Positions 32,162 through 43,399 of a stretch of 45,678 nt of DNA are shown piece after piece. Position 1 is the stretch's first letter. Every line of letters starts with the position of its first letter. Origin of the DNA: a virus (taxonomy: Duplodnaviria > Heunggongvirae > Uroviricota > Caudoviricetes); the IMG/VR virus record IMGVR_UViG_2663763326_000005; one strand, given 5' to 3'. Below the pieces are notes generated by a model that worked only from the letters and a program-made list of their open reading frames with translations, was not told where the DNA came from and made no database searches. Both the position numbers and the translations under genes were made by a program.

Positions 32162-35100
32162 TTAACTATCCTTTTCAGGTAGTTTTACAACATAAGTCCT
32201 TATTGTTTTCTCATATGTATTTTTGCTATTCGTTATTTTGGCCTTAATCCAGTGATAACCACTTTCATAGGTGCTGAATTCCGAAGCTGCATTACCTGTC
32301 CAGTGTAACGTTACTGTAGCAGGCTCCATTTTGACCCGTTGAGAGTCTGGACTATCTTCACTACCAGCAGAAAACTCAACCGTACCAGATAATGGGTTTC
32401 CAAAATGATCGACAAATCGAGCATAAATACCTACTGGAGATCCATCGTTTGTCTCATAACCAGGATCTTTTGTTAGAGTCAATACTCCATTTGCGTCATC
32501 AGCGTACAGGGAGAATGATTTCACCGCGCTAACATCACTGCCAAGTTCGTTTAAGGTCGCCGTTAATTTATACGAACCAACCGTTCGACCATGTACGCTT
32601 ACCGTAGCCTGACCGTTCTCATCAGTCGTTACTGTGGTTTTATCAACCACCAACGCACCATATTTAGACGGCCCAGATGTCTTAACATTCAATGCTCGAC
32701 CACTTAATGCTTCGCCTGACTTACTTTTCAACAGTAACGTAAATACCAGATTGTTGGTATCGCTCACTACAGCCGAAGATGCAGATGATGTGATCTCCAA
32801 CACAGCCCCCTTCACATCCGTCACGGCATCAATATTCTGGCTTGCGGTTATGCGTTTCCCATCCAGAACATACTCGGCCTGAATTGTGTACTGGCCTGAT
32901 TTCGATGCAGTGAACTGCGTTGTTGCCTGTCCATGAGCATCCAGTTGCAGATTACTACTGGTCAATGATGCTCCCGTCGATGGTGTAATCGTTAAATCCA
33001 CCTCGCCTGTAAACGCATTGTTATTCGCATCAACCAACTGAATGTTTACTGTTGCGTTTTCACTGCCATCGGCCACAATCTCCTGTTTTGATACACTCAT
33101 ATTCAGTTCTGCAGAAGCAACATCGGGCACAAAAGTTAACTTAACGCTGCCAGATTCCACGCTATGGGAACCGTCAGTCACCCGTGCAGTCACCGTGTAC
33201 TCACCAGCTTTCACCGTTGTAAGCGGAACAGAAACATGCCCTGTTGAATCAGTCACGATATTTGTTGGTACAGATAATCCTTCAGATGAGGTGATGAGCT
33301 GAATCTTTTGCCCATTGACCGACGCATTCGTATTTGTCAGCTGCACATCTAATACCGCTGCATCCTTACCATTAGCAGGAATATTGGAAATTAAACTACT
33401 GCTTTCAGGCGTCAGTGACAGTGAAGCTCCGGTCATATTTGATGCAAAGGTCACTGTTAACTCAGTAGACATCTGAGAACCAGCATGAGCTGTAATCACG
33501 TAAGACCCCGGAGTGGAGCTTATTAACGCAAAAATAGCATTACCATTTTCGTCAGTTGAAACAGCATGTTCACCACCAACTTGAGTTATCCCTGCTGGTA
33601 AAGACAATGTGACAGCATAACCAGGAACAACATTGCCGAAACGGTCCGCAAGGCTTACAGTTACCATATTTCTCTGTTTTCCATCAGCCAATGCATTATT
33701 TTGGCTGGCTTCAAACTGAGAGAATGTAACCTGCTGCCGGTCCTCAATAAAGGTGATTTCTTTCTTAACACCTGAGAAATCATGACTATCAGATTTAACA
33801 CCGATAGTAATCTTACCAGCTCGTTTTGAAGTTACTGTCGCGCTATAGACACCGTCTTTTTCCGTTACAGTCCCAAACTCGACTCCTTCTGCCTGGTTAA
33901 GAGCATAAAAGCTCAGAGTGTTATCACCAGTGATTGCATTTCCTTGTGAATCCTTCACTGCCAGTTGTAGATTGATATTGTAACCAACTACCTGTTCTGC
34001 TGGTGCAGCGGTTAAAACAGCACTGACCTCAGAATCAGGTTCTGTTGTTGCTGTTTGCTTAATACTGAGAGTAAATGTTTTTCCCTGAACTTTTGCAGTT
34101 ACACGTACCGTACCAGCCTGCGAACCAGCAGCCAGAACAGAGCGATATACCCCAGCAGAGATTTCCTCTACCGCGCCTAATGACGGAGCAGTTACCGTTT
34201 CACGCTGTCGAGCACTATTGCTATCTGCTGTAAATTCCACTGACATTTCAATGTCATCAGCCAGTCCGGTTAATGCCTTACCGTTACTATCTTTCAGGCT
34301 TAATACTATCGGATAAGTGGATTGGCTATCAGCAGAGATCGTCGGCGACGAATCTCCATCCAGTGTAAAAGACGAATCAGCTGTCGATACATCACTATCA
34401 GTAATGGCTGCCTGCTTAATATTCAGAGTAAAGGTTTTTCCCTGAACTTTTGCAGTTACACGTACCGTACCAGCCTGCGAACCAGCAGCCAGAACAGAGC
34501 GATATACACCAGCAGAGATTTCCTCTACCGCGCCTAATGACGGAGCAGTTACCGTTTCACGCTGTCGAGCACTATTGCTATCTGCTGTAAATTCCACTGA
34601 CATTTCAATGTCATCAGCCAGTCCGGTTAATGCCTTACCGTTACTATCTTTCAGGCTTAATACTATCGGATAAGTGGATTGGCTATCAGCAGAGATCGTC
34701 GGCGACGAATCTCCATCCAGTGTAAAAGACGAATCAGCTGTCGATACATCACTATCAGTAATGGCTGCCTGCTTAATATTCAGAGTAAAGGTTTTTCCCT
34801 GAACTTTTGCAGTTACACGTACCGTACCAGCCTGCGAACCAGCAGTCAGAACAGAGCGATATACCCCAGCAGAGATTTCCTCTACCGCGCCTAATGACGG
34901 AGCAGTTACCGTTTCACGCTGTCGAGCACTATTGCTATCTGCTGTAAATTCCACTGACATTTCAATGTCATCAGCCAGTCCGGTTAATGCCTTACCGTTA
35001 CTATCTTTCAGGCTTAATACTATCGGATAAGTGGATTGGCTATCAGCAGAGATTGTCGGCGACGAATCTCCATCCAGTGTAAAAGACGAATCAGCCGTCG

Positions 35101-36676: not shown

Positions 36677-37378
36677 CTATTTCATCGCTCCTTTCAGCCC
36701 GAACTTAGCTTTGATTTCTGCGATCTTCGCCAGAGCCTGTGCACGATTTAGAGGCCTACCGCCCATGACAGGAAGTTGTTTTACTGGTTCAGGTATAGCC
36801 TCACCACGGTTAATTCGCGCGGTCATACAGGCCAGTTCATCGGCAGCCTTGCGCCGTAATTCCGCGTCAGTCAACGCATTGGCCCGCATGTTCTGATACA
36901 GGTTGGTAACCAGCCAGTAGTGCGCGTTTGATTTCCACGGATAAGACTCTGCATCCGGATACAGACCACGCTTCCGGCAATACTCGTAAACCATATCAAC
37001 CAGCTCGCTGACGTTTGGCAGCCCGGCGGTAACGGATGCTTCTTCCCGGCACCATGCAACAAACTGCCCGGGTGATGGCAGAAATGGTCTATTCTGCCGA
37101 CGGGCAACACGCATTCCGTCGCTCACCTGCTCCATCGTGGTGATCCCGTTTTCCCGGAAAGCCAGAACCCACTGGCGGCGGATTTCGTTCAGTTCGTTCT
37201 GGTCACGATTAGCCAGGCTCGCCGGGAAAGTTGCCAGTAACTGGCTGAATACACCGTTGATTATCTGCGCTACCTGCTGTACCTGCGGCTTTTCGTCGTA
37301 CTGTTCCGGCATGTTGTTGGCGATCCGACGCATCTGCTCACGGTCAAAGTTAATCATCTGTGCGGCGATGTTTTTCAT
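36677..37378 (-). CDS. P: replication protein P (DnaB helicase loader)
   Basis: MKNIAAQMINFDREQMRRIANNMPEQYDEKPQVQQVAQIINGVFSQLLATFPASLANRDQNELNEIRRQWVLAFRENGITTMEQV; 233 aa as lambda P. Confidence 0.9.
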   Translation of the reverse strand: MKNIAAQMINFDREQMRRIANNMPEQYDEKPQVQQVAQIINGVFSQLLATFPASLANRDQNELNEIRRQWVLAFRENGITTMEQVSDGMRVARRQNRPFLPSPGQFVAWCREEASVTAGLPNVSELVDMVYEYCRKRGLYPDAESYPWKSNAHYWLVTNLYQNMRANALTDAELRRKAADELACMTARINRGEAIPEPVKQLPVMGGRPLNRAQALAKIAEIKAKFGLKGAMK

Positions 37379-38394
37379 AGATCCACCCCGTAAATCCAGT
37401 CTGTGTTTGTCAGGTCGAGTTTTGGTTTGCTAGCTGTCACGCCTGCCTGTTGCTTGTTACGGTTGATTTCGAGTTGGGTCCACTTGTCGCGGAGTTTGGC
37501 CGGACTTAGCACGTTACCGGACCAGAAGTTGTCCTGGCATGCCCAGCGGAACAGCACGCACATGTCGCGGTGGTTACGTCCGTCACGTTCACGCATCAGG
37601 CGGATATCGTTAGCCCACCCTGCAAAATTCGGTTTTCTGGCTGATGGCGCGATGGTCTTCACCATGTCAAACATCCACTCTGCGGCGGTCAGGTCTTCTG
37701 CTGTCCCCCACTTGCTGCCGCTCTGAATTGCAGCATCCGGTTTCACCACAGGAAGATCGTTTTCTGGTTGGTCAGAGGATTCGCCAGAATTCTCGGACGA
37801 AAAAGGTTTTATATTGTCTTTTGTTAGTTTGTCTTTTGTGTTTACCTGATTCGGGTAAACGCCTTTACCTGATTTGGGTAAACTTTTTTTACCTGATTCA
37901 GGTAAATTTACCTCTTTCAGGTAAACTTTATTTTTCTTACCTGATTCGGGTAATGTTGACCATTCACTGACCACATTATTAATGCCGGTATTCCGCCCGC
38001 TCTGAATAAAAATCCCACGCTTTACCAGAACACTTTTTGCAGCAGAACACTTGTGCGGCAATATCCCGGTTAATTCGGAAAGTTGCTCGTTGCTAACCCA
38101 ATCCAGTTTTTTATTAAAGCCATATGTTTTGCGCATGACAGCCAGAAAGACCAGAAGCTGGTGCTGTGTTAATCCGGCCAGCATCACAGCTTCCAGCAAC
38201 TCATTTGCAATGCGCGTATAACCATCATCGAGATCTGCCACGCGCGGCTCCTTTTGTGCCGCATCCGGCACTGGAAAATTGAATATCTCAGCAGTGTTTG
38301 CCATAATTCCTCCCGCAATGAGTGTGTTACGATTTGCACCTGAAAGTCGGTTCTGTTCCAGCAGACCGGCTTTCGCCATTTCTGAACCTGTCAT
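37375..38394 (-). CDS. O: replication initiator O-like protein (origin-binding)
   Basis: Lambda-O-like N-terminal domain (ADLDDGYTRIANELLEAVMLAGLTQHQLLVFLAVMRKTYGFNK), iterons inside the coding sequence, stop overlaps the P start. Confidence 0.8.
   Translation of the reverse strand: MTGSEMAKAGLLEQNRLSGANRNTLIAGGIMANTAEIFNFPVPDAAQKEPRVADLDDGYTRIANELLEAVMLAGLTQHQLLVFLAVMRKTYGFNKKLDWVSNEQLSELTGILPHKCSAAKSVLVKRGIFIQSGRNTGINNVVSEWSTLPESGKKNKVYLKEVNLPESGKKSLPKSGKGVYPNQVNTKDKLTKDNIKPFSSENSGESSDQPENDLPVVKPDAAIQSGSKWGTAEDLTAAEWMFDMVKTIAPSARKPNFAGWANDIRLMRERDGRNHRDMCVLFRWACQDNFWSGNVLSPAKLRDKWTQLEINRNKQQAGVTASKPKLDLTNTDWIYGVDL
37842..37954. repeat. replication origin iterons (5 x 17-bp TTACC..GGTAA) with adjacent AT-rich tract
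   Basis: TTACCTGATTCGGGTAA (37842), TTACCTGATTTGGGTAA (37865), TTACCTGATTCAGGTAA (37889), TTACCTCTTTCAGGTAA (37908), TTACCTGATTCGGGTAA (37938); AT-rich 37801-37841. Confidence 0.8.
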
Positions 38395-39230: not shown

Positions 39231-39334
39231 AACAACCTCCGTGGTTAATTTGAATCAAGATTAAAACTATGGTTGTTTTTAGTCAACAACCATTTTCGTT
39301 TGATGGAATAAAACCTTGGTTGTACATTTGGACT
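39231..39334. promoter_or_regulatory. OR operator / divergent PR and PRM promoter region
   Basis: Palindrome ATGGTTGTT-TTTAGTC-AACAACCAT (39269-39293) plus further AACAACC/GGTTGT half-sites. Candidate PR on minus: TTGACT (39281-39286), 17 bp, TAATCT (39258-39263). Candidate PRM on plus: TTGATG (39300-39305), 17 bp, TACATT (39323-39328), with cI ATG at 39335 (leaderless-like). Confidence 0.6.
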
Positions 39335-40024
39335 ATGAAAACAACACTCTCAGAAAGACTTAAAGAAGCCAGATTAGCGCGAGGCCTTACACAAAAGGCG
39401 CTTGGGGATTTGGTCGGGGTTAGCCAGGCTGCTATTCAGAAAATCGAAACAGGGAAAGCTAATCAAACAACTAAAATCGTGGAGATCGCGAACGCTTTGG
39501 GTGTGCGCGCAGAATGGTTATCTTCTGGCGTTGGAAATATGTCAGACAGTACAGTGCAACCAATACAATCAACTGTCAGCCATTCCAAATACTTCAAGAT
39601 TGACGTTCTTGATATAGAAGTCAGTGCTGGGCCGGGAGTCATCAACCGTGAGTTTGTAGAAGTTCTACGCTCGGTTGAGTACTCGTTTGACGATGCTCGT
39701 CACATGTTCGATGGTAGGAAGGCGGAAAATATCCGCATCATTAACGTGCGTGGTGACAGCATGTCAGGAACGATCGAACCAGGTGATCTGCTGTTCGTTG
39801 ATATCACAGTTAAATCTTTCGACGGTGATGGTATCTATGCGTTTCTGTACGACGACACAGCCCATGTAAAGCGCCTGCAAATGATGAAGGATAAGCTGCT
39901 GGTCATCTCTGATAACAAAAGCTACTCACCGTGGGACCCGATCGAGAAAGACGAGATGAACCGGGTGTTCATCTTCGGTAAGGTTATTGGGAGCATGCCG
40001 CAGACATATAGGAAGCATGGGTAG
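39335..40024 (+). CDS. cI: CI-type prophage repressor (HTH plus LexA/S24-like autocleavage domain)
   Basis: MKTTLSERLKEARLARGLTQKALGDLVGVSQAAIQKIETGKANQTTKIVEIANALGV (HTH) and a C-terminal S24-like domain (VRGDSMSGTIEPGDLLFVD..AHVKRL). Confidence 0.85.
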   Translation: MKTTLSERLKEARLARGLTQKALGDLVGVSQAAIQKIETGKANQTTKIVEIANALGVRAEWLSSGVGNMSDSTVQPIQSTVSHSKYFKIDVLDIEVSAGPGVINREFVEVLRSVEYSFDDARHMFDGRKAENIRIINVRGDSMSGTIEPGDLLFVDITVKSFDGDGIYAFLYDDTAHVKRLQMMKDKLLVISDNKSYSPWDPIEKDEMNRVFIFGKVIGSMPQTYRKHG

Positions 40025-40145
40025 TACCAATTAAAAATTATCAACTGGGCATTGTGCTCATTCAGTAAAGAACTAATTCCTATCTTTGCTCTAGGTAGTA
40101 ATATTAAGCCACCGCAATAATATCTTTACCTAACGGCGTAAGAAT

Positions 40146-40172
40146 CCCGGTCACCGTGCCGGGTTTTCTTTT
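40146..40172 (+). terminator. intrinsic terminator downstream of cI
   Basis: CCCGG-TCACCGTG-CCGGG followed by TTTTCTTTT. Confidence 0.6.
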
Positions 40173-40286
40173 GCCCTCCCCTCATCACACACACCGTTAA
40201 AAAAACCACCATAACCTCGCTTCAGTTATCGCTATGCGATTCAAGTCACAAAATAAATCCATCCTAAATACAACCAGTTATATCTA

Positions 40287-40345
40287 AAACAACCAATAAA
40301 ACAACTTTTGTTGTTGACGATAAAACAACTATAGTTTTAAATAAG
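40287..40345 (+). promoter_or_regulatory. candidate OL operators / PL promoter
   Basis: Repeated AAAACAAC motifs (40287, 40299, 40322) and inverted GTTGTT (40310-40315) share the OR half-site. TTGACG (40314-40319), 17 bp, TTAAAT (40337-40342) is oriented toward gam-bet-exo. Confidence 0.5.
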
Positions 40346-40346
40346 T

Positions 40347-40489
40347 TCATCGCAACAACACAACGATACGGCAACTACCTGATTCACCGTTGCGATGACC
40401 GCTTAGATCCGCAGTTTGAATTTCAGCAGGCTTCGGGGAGTGCGAGGGGTGAAACGGACGCGTGAACGTCGGTGTGACCAGCTGAAATT
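40347..40489 (+). promoter_or_regulatory. two consecutive long-range inverted repeats in the predicted PL leader (candidate structured RNA: nut- or put-like)
   Basis: TCATCGCAAC (40347-40356) pairs with GTTGCGATGA (40389-40398). AATTTCAGC (40419-40427) pairs with GCTGAAATT (40481-40489); its loop holds GACG-CGTGAA-CGTC (40457-40470). Confidence 0.35.
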
Positions 40490-40535
40490 AACTCAACATT
40501 TCATACCTTAGTCGCTTCAACGAGGCGGCTTAGTT

Positions 40536-40826
40536 ATGACAACCGGCGGCCATCCACCGCCTGAATACGCGCAGAAGTCTCTATATGTTCAGCAGCCCAG
40601 CTTACGGGCAGGAGTTTTTATGGTTCATCAACATTACGGAACGCAGACCGTTAATCGCGGTGCGGTCATGCCAGGAATGCTGGTCAAACACAAAGATGGT
40701 ACCTGGACTGCATCAGCTAATTTACGCGGACGGCTTTATCTGCATCGCGGCATCGAGCGCACTTATACCCGTGATTTGCTCGTGGAAGTTTTTCTCGACG
40801 GACGCGGCAACGGCCTGAATCACTAA
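40536..40826 (+). CDS. hypothetical protein (96 aa) at the N-gene position
   Basis: First ORF downstream of the candidate PL, upstream of gam; no arginine-rich N-like motif; GAGG about 10 nt upstream. Confidence 0.4.
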
Positions 40827-40901
40827 TCCCCTTTCCTGTTTACCTAATCAGCCCGGCATTTCGCAGGCGATATTTTCACAGCCATTTTCAGGAGTTCAGC
40901 C

Positions 40902-41198
40902 ATGAACGCTTATTACATTCAGGATCGTCTTGAGGCTCAAAGCTGGGCGCGTCACTACCAGCAGATCGCCCGTGAAGAGAAAGAGGCAGAACTGGCAGAC
41001 GACATGGAAAAAGGTCTTCCACAGCACCTGTTTGAATCACTCTGCATCGATCATTTGCAACGCTGCGGGGCCAGCAAAAAAGCCATTACCCGTGCGTTTG
41101 ATGACGATGTTGAGTTTCAGGAGCGCATGGCAGAACACATCCGGTACATGGTTGAAACCATTGCTCACCACCATGTTGATATTGATTCAGAGGTATAA
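40902..41198 (+). CDS. gam: Gam (RecBCD inhibitor), short GamS-like form
   Basis: [98 protein letters not shown] matches lambda Gam; no in-frame upstream ATG for a long form. Confidence 0.9.
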
Positions 41199-41203
41199 AA
41201 CGG

Positions 41204-41989
41204 ATGAGTACAGCACTCGCAACGCTGGCTGGGAAGCTGGCTGAACGTGTCGGCATGGATTCTGTCGACCCACAGGAACTGATCACCACTCTTCGTCAGA
41301 CGGCATTTAAAGGTGATGCCAGCGATGCGCAGTTCATCGCATTGCTGATCGTCGCCAACCAGTACGGCCTTAATCCGTGGACGAAAGAAATTTACGCCTT
41401 CCCTGATAAGCAGAACGGCATCGTTCCGGTGGTGGGCGTTGATGGCTGGTCCCGCATCATCAATGAAAACCAGCAGTTTGATGGCATGGACTTTGAGCAG
41501 GACAATGAATCATGTACGTGCCGGATTTACCGCAAAGACCGCAATCATCCGATCTGCGTTACCGAATGGATGGATGAATGCCGCCGCGAACCATTCAAAA
41601 CTCGCGAAGGCAGAGAAATCACGGGGCCGTGGCAGTCGCATCCCAAACGGATGTTACGGCATAAAGCCATGATTCAGTGTGCCCGTCTGGCCTTCGGATT
41701 TGCTGGTATCTATGACAAGGATGAAGCCGAGCGCATTGTCGAAAATACTGCATACACTGCGGAACGTCAGCCGGAACGCGACATCACTCCGGTTAACGAT
41801 GAAACCATGCAGGAGATTAACACTCTGCTGATTGCCCTGGACAAAACATGGGATGACGACTTATTGCCGCTCTGTTCCCAGATATTTCGCCGCGACATTC
41901 GCGCATCGTCAGAACTGACACAGGCCGAAGCAGTGAAAGCTCTTGGATTCCTGAAACAGAAAGCCACTGAGCAGAAGGTGGCAGCATGA
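41204..41989 (+). CDS. bet: Bet (Red-beta single-strand annealing protein)
   Basis: [72 protein letters not shown]..; 261 aa. Confidence 0.9.
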
Positions 41990-42666
41990 CACCGGACATT
42001 ATCCTGCAGCGTACCGGGATCGACGTGAGAGCTGTCGAACAGGGGGATGATGCATGGCACAAATTACGGCTCGGCGTCATCACCGCTTCAGAAGTTCACA
42101 ACGTGATAGCAAAGCCCCGCTCAGGAAAGAAGTGGCCTGACATGAAAATGTCCTACTTCCACACCCTGCTGGCTGAGGTTTGCACCGGTGTGGCTCCGGA
42201 AGTTAATGCTAAGGCGCTGGCGTGGGGAAAACAGTACGAGAACGACGCCAGAACCCTGTTTGAATTCACTTCCGGCGTGAATGTTACTGAATCCCCGATC
42301 ATCTATCGCGACGAAAGTATGCGCACCGCCTGCTCTCCCGATGGTTTATGCAGTGACGGCAATGGCCTTGAGCTGAAATGCCCGTTTACCTCCCGGGATT
42401 TCATGAAGTTCCGGCTCGGTGGTTTCGAGGCCATAAAGTCGGCTTACATGGCCCAGGTGCAGTACAGCATGTGGGTGACACGAAAAGATGCCTGGTACTT
42501 TGCCAACTATGACCCACGAATGAAGCGTGAAGGCCTGCATTATGTCGTGGTTGAGCGGGATGAAAAGTACATGGCGAGTTTTGACGAGATGGTGCCGGAG
42601 TTCATCGAAAAAATGGACGAAGCACTGGCTGAAATTGGTTTTGTATTTGGAGAGCAATGGCGATGA
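41986..42666 (+). CDS. exo: Exo (Red-alpha 5-prime to 3-prime exonuclease)
   Basis: [69 protein letters not shown]..; 226 aa. Confidence 0.9.
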
Positions 42667-43301: not shown

Positions 43302-43399
43302 ACATGAAAAGCAAAATTATCAGGGAGCTACAGGCTCCTTTTTTATTGTTCGCATTCACCCTCAAGCGTATTAACCAACAGTTCAGGGATTAATGAAAG

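Follow-up and report, generated by a model that had tools for sequence, protein, structure and literature searches.

The window, that is, the whole stretch of 45,678 nucleotides analysed here, carries the early-left region of a lambdoid prophage with the gene order repressor, PL, kil, gam, bet, exo (Table 1). The kil gene is the first open reading frame (ORF) after the putative PL promoter; its stop codon ends at position 40826 and gam starts at 40902. A preliminary description of this DNA had reported an unassigned protein of 96 amino acids, encoded at 40536..40826, at the N position and directly upstream of gam. The coordinates of the ORF and its adjacency to gam are right.

Table 1. Features of the early-left region, in coordinates of the window
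Feature	Position	Strand	Basis or remark
Repressor (HTH and S24 peptidase)	39269..40024, as ORF	+	Upstream of kil
Terminator-like hairpin after the repressor gene	40146-40173		
Operator palindrome AACAACTTTTGTTGTT (putative OL)	40300-40315	+	Unique in the window; 0.02 occurrences expected by chance
Putative PL -35 hexamer, TTGACG	40314-40319	+	Read from the sequence; overlapped by the operator palindrome
Putative PL -10 hexamer, TTAAAT	40337-40342	+	17-nt spacer; read from the sequence
Leader, about 271 nt, from putative PL start to kil ATG	40349..40619	+	Alignment of 34 variants
Two-hairpin RNA motif	40502..40561	+	Overlaps the false 5' extension of the ORF
Hairpin 1, 14 pairs	40502..40538	+	Basal stem CAUA/UAUG contains ATG 40536
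Hairpin 2, GGCGG-CCATCCA-CCGCC	40545..40561	+	Inside the 26-mer ATGACAACCGGCGGCCATCCACCGCC
False extension, 28 codons of non-coding leader	40536..40619	+	In frame by chance in this lineage; absent, stopped or unrelated in orthologues
Shine-Dalgarno sequence, AGGAG	40610..40614	+	5 nt upstream of the kil ATG; read from the sequence
kil CDS (KilR family)	40620..40826, TAA included	+	PHROG, NCBIfam, BLASTP, RefSeq, codon pattern, AlphaFold2 (AF2)
gam	40902..41198	+	Pfam Gam PF06064, E = 3.7e-63; RefSeq; downstream neighbour in the same operon
bet	41204..41989	+	Follows gam; RefSeq of an identical prophage
exo	41986..42666	+	Follows bet; RefSeq of an identical prophage

The window and lambda are unalignable within their kil genes and near-identical from a shared CAC TAA stop through the start of gam. 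The mosaic junction covers 40820..40905 of the window and 33112..33190 of lambda, and its downstream part includes the start of the 98-aa Gam. Since lambda homology resumes at the kil stop codon, the comparison places the gene exactly in the lambda kil slot and not, as had been proposed, at the N position in the homologous sense. No N gene lies between the putative PL and kil in the window, and the sole likeness of kil to lambda N is its rank as first ORF after PL; the fold class differs.

This arrangement is widespread. Of 5426 complete E. coli genomes, 2703 contain the 877-bp stretch that runs between the end of the repressor gene and gam, 1987 of them at near full length; 97 phage records contain it too. 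A tblastn search with the Kil protein detected it in 146 phage records, including HK225, mEp237, phi80, HK639, and many Stx2a phages. HK225, KO-TP1, and HK639 share the gene context of the window, and phi80 encodes an annotated kil homologue.

Several features around the locus were recorded in passing. The repressor ORF (251 aa) probably starts at ATG 39335 (230 aa, 39335..40024), as in RefSeq; the upstream ATG at 39269 sits within an inverted repeat, ATGGTTGTTTTTAGTCAACAACCAT, whose ACAAC/GTTGT half-sites are the same as those of the OL palindrome, so the repeat is probably an OR operator. In phage PhiR47_2 (L002, 1148..2576) a two-gene insert annotated as GevT toxin and GevA antitoxin lies between the repressor gene and PL, the position of rex in lambda; it is absent from the window. 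Within the O-like replication gene (37375..38394), four copies of a word of 9-11 nt, spaced 23-48 nt apart at 37843..37947 (+), resemble origin iterons; they were seen as repeated blastn hits only. A terminator-like hairpin with a T-run at 43322..43350 (+), AGGGAGCTACAGGCTCCTT TTTTATTGTT, lies within the early-left operon, 5' of a TraR/DksA-like gene and int, and raises the question of how a phage without N reads through it.

Family and Coding Sequence of kil

The preliminary description found nothing assignable in the 96-aa ORF and proposed a profile search as a check. PHROGs, NCBIfam, and pairwise BLAST instead all assign it to the Kil/KilR family. The profile phrog_294, "Kil protein for bacterial septation inhibition," matches amino acids 20-96 of the ORF with E = 1.2e-38, and NCBIfam NF008465, "FtsZ inhibitor protein," matches amino acids 29-96 with E about 2e-17 to 4e-17. 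The NF008465 score is 61.9 bits for the 96-aa ORF and 63.1 bits for the 68-aa protein, both under the curated cutoff of 92 bits, and this shortfall (62-63 versus 92 bits) marks the 68-aa Kil, by its sequence, as a sister clade rather than KilR proper. In BLASTP, KilR of the Rac prophage, taken from E. coli K-12, shares 36% identity with the ORF over 61 aa (E = 9e-13), and Met1 of KilR is aligned to Met29 of the ORF. The precomputed Pfam family PF27398 is shared by database proteins related to the query (149 of them) and to KilR (57), and cluster representatives 96-99% identical to the query protein carry it as well. A search of Pfam-A with ORF 40536..40826 was empty because the PF27398 model is newer than the Pfam copy used.

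The clear homology to a known lambda early protein that the preliminary description had named as evidence against its view was thus found in spirit, with Rac KilR and not with lambda Kil. The latter (47 aa) gave no local alignment with the window Kil at E <= 100; the two proteins occupy the same slot next to gam without detectable sequence similarity, and both are annotated as host-killing, FtsZ-directed division inhibitors. We agree that the protein is not like N: there is no arginine-rich N terminus in the conserved 68 aa, and no N-type antiterminator matched the 96-aa ORF in Pfam, PHROG, or NCBIfam. In an identical prophage, RefSeq annotates WP_000233576.1 (68 aa), equivalent to 40620..40826, as "phage encoded cell division inhibitor protein," and phage records name the product Kil. 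The kil gene of the window is therefore already known and annotated. The proposal of a novel early-left function, such as host takeover, holds for host takeover in the broad sense that membership of the KilR family gives it, but not for novelty.

The six-frame ORF list contains the ORF 40536..40826 (+, ATG to TAA, 96 aa) and, overlapping it, an ORF of 77 codons at 40585..40818. We compared the two frames across ten diverged orthologues, drawn from HK225, Klebsiella phage KO-TP1, Citrobacter, Silvania, Enterobacter, Kluyvera, Pseudocitrobacter, and one metagenome bin, which share 71-76% nucleotide identity and 78-87% protein identity with the window. All ten align without gaps over 68 codons, from a common Met to a common stop. 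In the kil frame, 24 columns vary at codon position 1, 15 at position 2, and 59 at position 3, a pattern that favours this frame over the 77-codon frame and is the mark of purifying selection. Every one of these relatives keeps the kil frame intact, whereas the +1 frame of the 77-codon ORF holds three to five stops in each; it is present in the window as a string but not conserved.

The same comparison bears on the start codon. Orthologues in other genera are 67-68 aa long. Three orthologues have in-frame stops 4-5 codons 5' of the shared Met, and the others have unrelated sequence there; close relatives of the L136 type encode an identical Kil and have the upstream ATG in another frame (offset 83, not 85). 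A purine-rich GGAG, GAGG, or GGGGA precedes the Met by 5-9 nt at the same place in all ten orthologues. The orthologue start, the upstream stops, and the out-of-frame ATG together argue that the CDS is 40620..40826, with its true start at ATG 40620 (Met29 of the ORF), and that the 28 upstream codons are outside the protein; the product from this start reads MVHQHYG.... The caution in the preliminary description that the frame needed confirmation was well placed: the frame of its 96-aa ORF was upheld, the 77-codon frame was rejected, and the start was moved. Taken together, the evidence leaves us with little doubt that the feature at 40620..40826 is kil, encoding a 68-residue member of the KilR family and standing first in the PL operon of a lambdoid E. 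coli prophage.

The Putative PL Leader and a Two-Hairpin RNA Motif

An automatic promoter scan did not call PL at 40300..40342. As the promoter we also considered the pair TTGACG/TATAGT, which has a spacer of only 10 nt, and rejected it in favour of TTGACG-17-TTAAAT. The leader was aligned in 34 distinct variants, which fall behind at least three operator/promoter types. In two of three promoter types the homology starts 7 nt past the -10 hexamer, and in the third it starts farther downstream. This onset suggests that transcription probably begins near 40349 and that the leader would be a module separate from the immunity region. Near-identical copies of the leader differ by indels of 1 nt and 5 nt, so its 271 nt are non-coding. 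Such a leader probably modulates kil expression or the fate of the transcript. As a whole it is not predicted to fold more stably than shuffled sequence (z = 0.25). Rfam gave no match at the gathering score anywhere in the window, and at E <= 10 the region 40030-40900 returned only matches at noise level (12-18 bits).

The 5' part of the leader, 40349..40500 (+), forms a conserved non-coding module in this N-less phage, and its C/A-rich, G-poor 5' end (AUCGCAACAACACAACGAUACGGCAAC) is a possible Rho-loading site. Like the put RNAs of HK022 and HK639, the leader would be a non-coding RNA with stem-loops at the start of the PL transcript of a lambdoid phage that lacks N. A put antiterminator RNA was nevertheless rejected as its identity: neither HK022 putL nor the annotated putL-like RNA of HK639 aligns convincingly with it, and a sensitive blastn search found no second, putR-like copy of the leader in the window.

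We also examined a 31-codon ORF at 40416..40511 (+, TTG start), whose product has an arginine-rich stretch (RLRGVRGVKRTRERR) containing KRTRERR, as a candidate N-like arginine-rich-motif peptide, to which the likeness is superficial. It has no ribosome-binding site, and near-identical relatives carry internal indels of 1 nt and 5 nt that shift its frame, so this ORF probably arose by chance. Its TAG at 40509 reads CAG in many relatives, which opens the frame into kil, and the PhiR47_2 record annotates the resulting 128-aa read-through product as "Kil."

The 3' part of the leader contains a motif of two hairpins. In a blastn search of the leader for distant matches, 40499-40561 matched HK225 (95%) and phi80 (85.5%) amid otherwise unrelated sequence, just upstream of kil in the former and just after N and its terminator in the latter. 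The 26-mer ATGACAACCGGCGGCCATCCACCGCC (40536-40561) is identical or one base different in HK225, phi80, KO-TP1, and HK639, and exact-pattern matching turned up at least 120 viral contigs that carry it. The two arms of hairpin 1 differ wholly between variants, for example GTCGCTTC/GAGGCGGC, GAGTCATT/AGTGGCTC, AAACGGGTTC/GAGCCTGTTT, GGCAGATT/AGTCTGCC, CAGCAACTTC/GAGGTTGCT, and CACCGTTCTC/GAGTGCGGT. RNAalifold, applied to 33 distinct sequences, recovered the 14 pairs of hairpin 1, seven of them with compensatory double changes. In all, 99.0% of the cells of hairpin 1 are paired, compared with 86.4% after shuffling (0 of 500 shuffles reach the observed value) and 33-50% with slid partners; the covariation score is 0.39 against 0.14. 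G-U pairs are frequent, and the covariance-model score is 90 bits for the + strand and 24 bits for the - strand; both results indicate that it is the sense (kil) strand that would fold. Hairpin 2 is invariant in a sample that was gathered with its sequence as the search pattern, and the lack of variation therefore cannot count as independent evidence.

The window has a single copy of the motif. It is absent from Rac, from lambda, from the region of HK022 that was examined, and from the kil loci of Citrobacter, Kluyvera, and Enterobacter, so a link with kil is not obligatory. Most variants have it directly after an intrinsic terminator, and about three quarters have a kil homologue no more than 1.5 kb downstream. 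Phage phi80 has its N gene 5' of the motif and the kil homologue farther downstream; in HK639 the motif is additional to the annotated putL, about 1 kb downstream of it. Rac differs in having the small RNA KilS in the kilR 5' UTR (PMC8175672), and KilS has no alignable similarity to the window leader. The sRNAs AgvB/AsxR and Pas were discarded as identities for the motif, as they sit at other prophage sites. RefSeq carries no annotation at the motif sites, and the motif is likewise not in Rfam. It is potentially the one new item at this locus. We suggest tentatively, giving the idea somewhat less than an even chance, that it is an undescribed cis-regulatory RNA that gates the expression of toxic early-left genes. 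It could act, for example, as a site for RNase III or other processing, as a Rho or pausing element, or as a switch that hides the start of a polyproline leader peptide.

The motif also bears on what ribosomes might do at ATG 40536. A longer, 96-aa isoform of Kil could be made from this codon in addition to the 68-aa protein, its extra 28 residues (MTTGGHPPP...) having a lineage-specific N-terminal function. In the window, as in most close relatives, no stop separates 40536 from kil in this frame (the upstream ORF is 96 codons long in the commonest variants), a GAGG lies 10 nt upstream, and removing six N-terminal residues from KilR barely alters its toxicity (PMC12482147). We nevertheless consider this isoform improbable, given that every diverged orthologue lacks the extension, interrupts it with a stop, or has unrelated sequence there, and that the L136-type relatives have it out of frame; that the ATG (40536-40538) forms part of the paired basal stem of the covarying hairpin 1, itself a further argument against a start here, with the GAG(G) in the same hairpin; and that the GAGG is poorly spaced and not conserved in other motif variants, while RefSeq picks 40620. 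Somewhat less improbable, yet still unlikely, is that ATG 40536 starts a regulatory leader peptide that controls kil, for instance through Rho access or RNA folding, and that in the window merely runs into kil by chance. Many variants have only a short ORF from this ATG (16, 20, 21, 22, or 24 aa) with the same TAT TAA end (...EVLY*), and its PPP is a known EF-P-dependent stalling sequence. Silencing of Rac kilR by Rho and NusG (PMC12482147) would also fit such control. Against it, the ORF spans from 16 to 226 codons with many frame-shifting differences, there is no consistent Shine-Dalgarno sequence, and the ATG is base-paired; its first nine codons show no third-position variation, but in a sample that was selected by that same sequence and is therefore no guide on this point. 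That the 77-codon frame is the real gene, as in the PhiR34_1 GenBank record, can be practically dismissed: the ORF exists and is what PV340559.1 annotates as the CDS here, but it has no family match beyond noise in Pfam and PHROGs, and the stops and substitution pattern described above fit the kil frame. We therefore retain ATG 40620 as the start of kil.

Predicted Structure and Function of Kil

An AF2 model was built from a 48-sequence alignment covering both clades and has a mean pLDDT of 86 and a pTM of 0.71. It predicts strands at residues 8-12, 20-24, 27-35, 38-43, 46-50, and 54-59, and its confidence is low at residues 1-7 and at about 60-68, so that Kil is predicted to be a small beta barrel of six strands with flexible ends. 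Structure prediction had been among the checks proposed in the preliminary description, and its result agrees in architecture with the published AlphaFold3 model of KilR, which has a beta core and unstructured ends of 7 and 12 residues (PMC12482147). A sequence search of the PDB with Kil returned only noise, with no sequence-related solved structure; Foldseek against the PDB found at best weak SH3/KOW-like barrels, such as the N-domain of eIF5A (E about 0.4). The best structural match in BFVD is a 73-aa Pantoea phage protein (TM 0.80, 35% identity). Residues conserved across the window and KilR clades (H5, G7, R13, P18, G19, A31, S32, L39, Y40, L59, and G63) span the entire barrel.

KilR of the E. 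coli K-12 Rac prophage (b1352, 73 aa) is homologous to the window Kil along its full length. Each gene belongs to the early-left operon of its lambdoid prophage and lies between repressor and recombination genes, the latter being lambda Red (gam-bet-exo) in the window and recE/recT in Rac. KilR is toxic, causes filamentation, and disrupts Z rings, effects that are suppressed by extra FtsZ; at high dose MreB is mislocalised and cells become rounded, so that KilR acts on more than one target (PMC12482147). ZipA is required by lambda Kil but not by KilR, and the two are unrelated proteins that differ in action (PMC12482147). The C-terminal tail of KilR is essential in a length-dependent manner, and loss of the last three residues keeps filamentation and abolishes rounding (PMC12482147). 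The window Kil is five residues shorter than KilR, mostly in this tail, which ends about four residues before that of KilR in the alignment and differs in sequence too; its potency or target range may differ. From the shorter tail and the truncation result, a phenotype confined to division would be a reasonable guess.

By position and by homology to KilR, the one characterised member of the family, Kil would most likely act after prophage induction to block host cell division via FtsZ and possibly also MreB. The S24-type repressor (39335..40024) would keep PL off in the lysogen; upon induction Kil would be made together with Gam, Bet, and Exo and would disturb assembly of the FtsZ ring, leading to filaments; in larger amounts it may interfere with MreB-dependent elongation as well.

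Anti-defence genes abound in the early-left regions of lambdoid phages, and the protein might have the KilR fold but a different main role, for example in anti-defence or superinfection, rather than inhibition of FtsZ. Its place in a sister clade under the KilR cutoff, its different and shorter C-terminal tail, and the multiple targets of KilR itself (PMC12482147) would be in keeping with this. We nonetheless regard such a role as quite unlikely: the residues shared by the two clades extend over the whole barrel, and the gene sits in the exact slot of lambda kil, which encodes an unrelated protein with the same FtsZ-directed function, suggesting functional replacement. Inhibition of division through FtsZ thus remains our preferred function for Kil.

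The practical value of these results lies in correcting the annotation to kil at 40620..40826, since the 96-aa ORF, the 128-aa call in PhiR47_2, and the 77-aa call in the wrong frame in PhiR34_1 are mis-annotations in public phage records. The locus is also a clean case of lambdoid mosaicism, in which an unrelated FtsZ-directed killer gene has been swapped for lambda kil with the junction at the stop codon. If the two-hairpin motif and the N-less PL leader control expression of this toxic division inhibitor, they would be relevant to how prophages silence genes of this kind.
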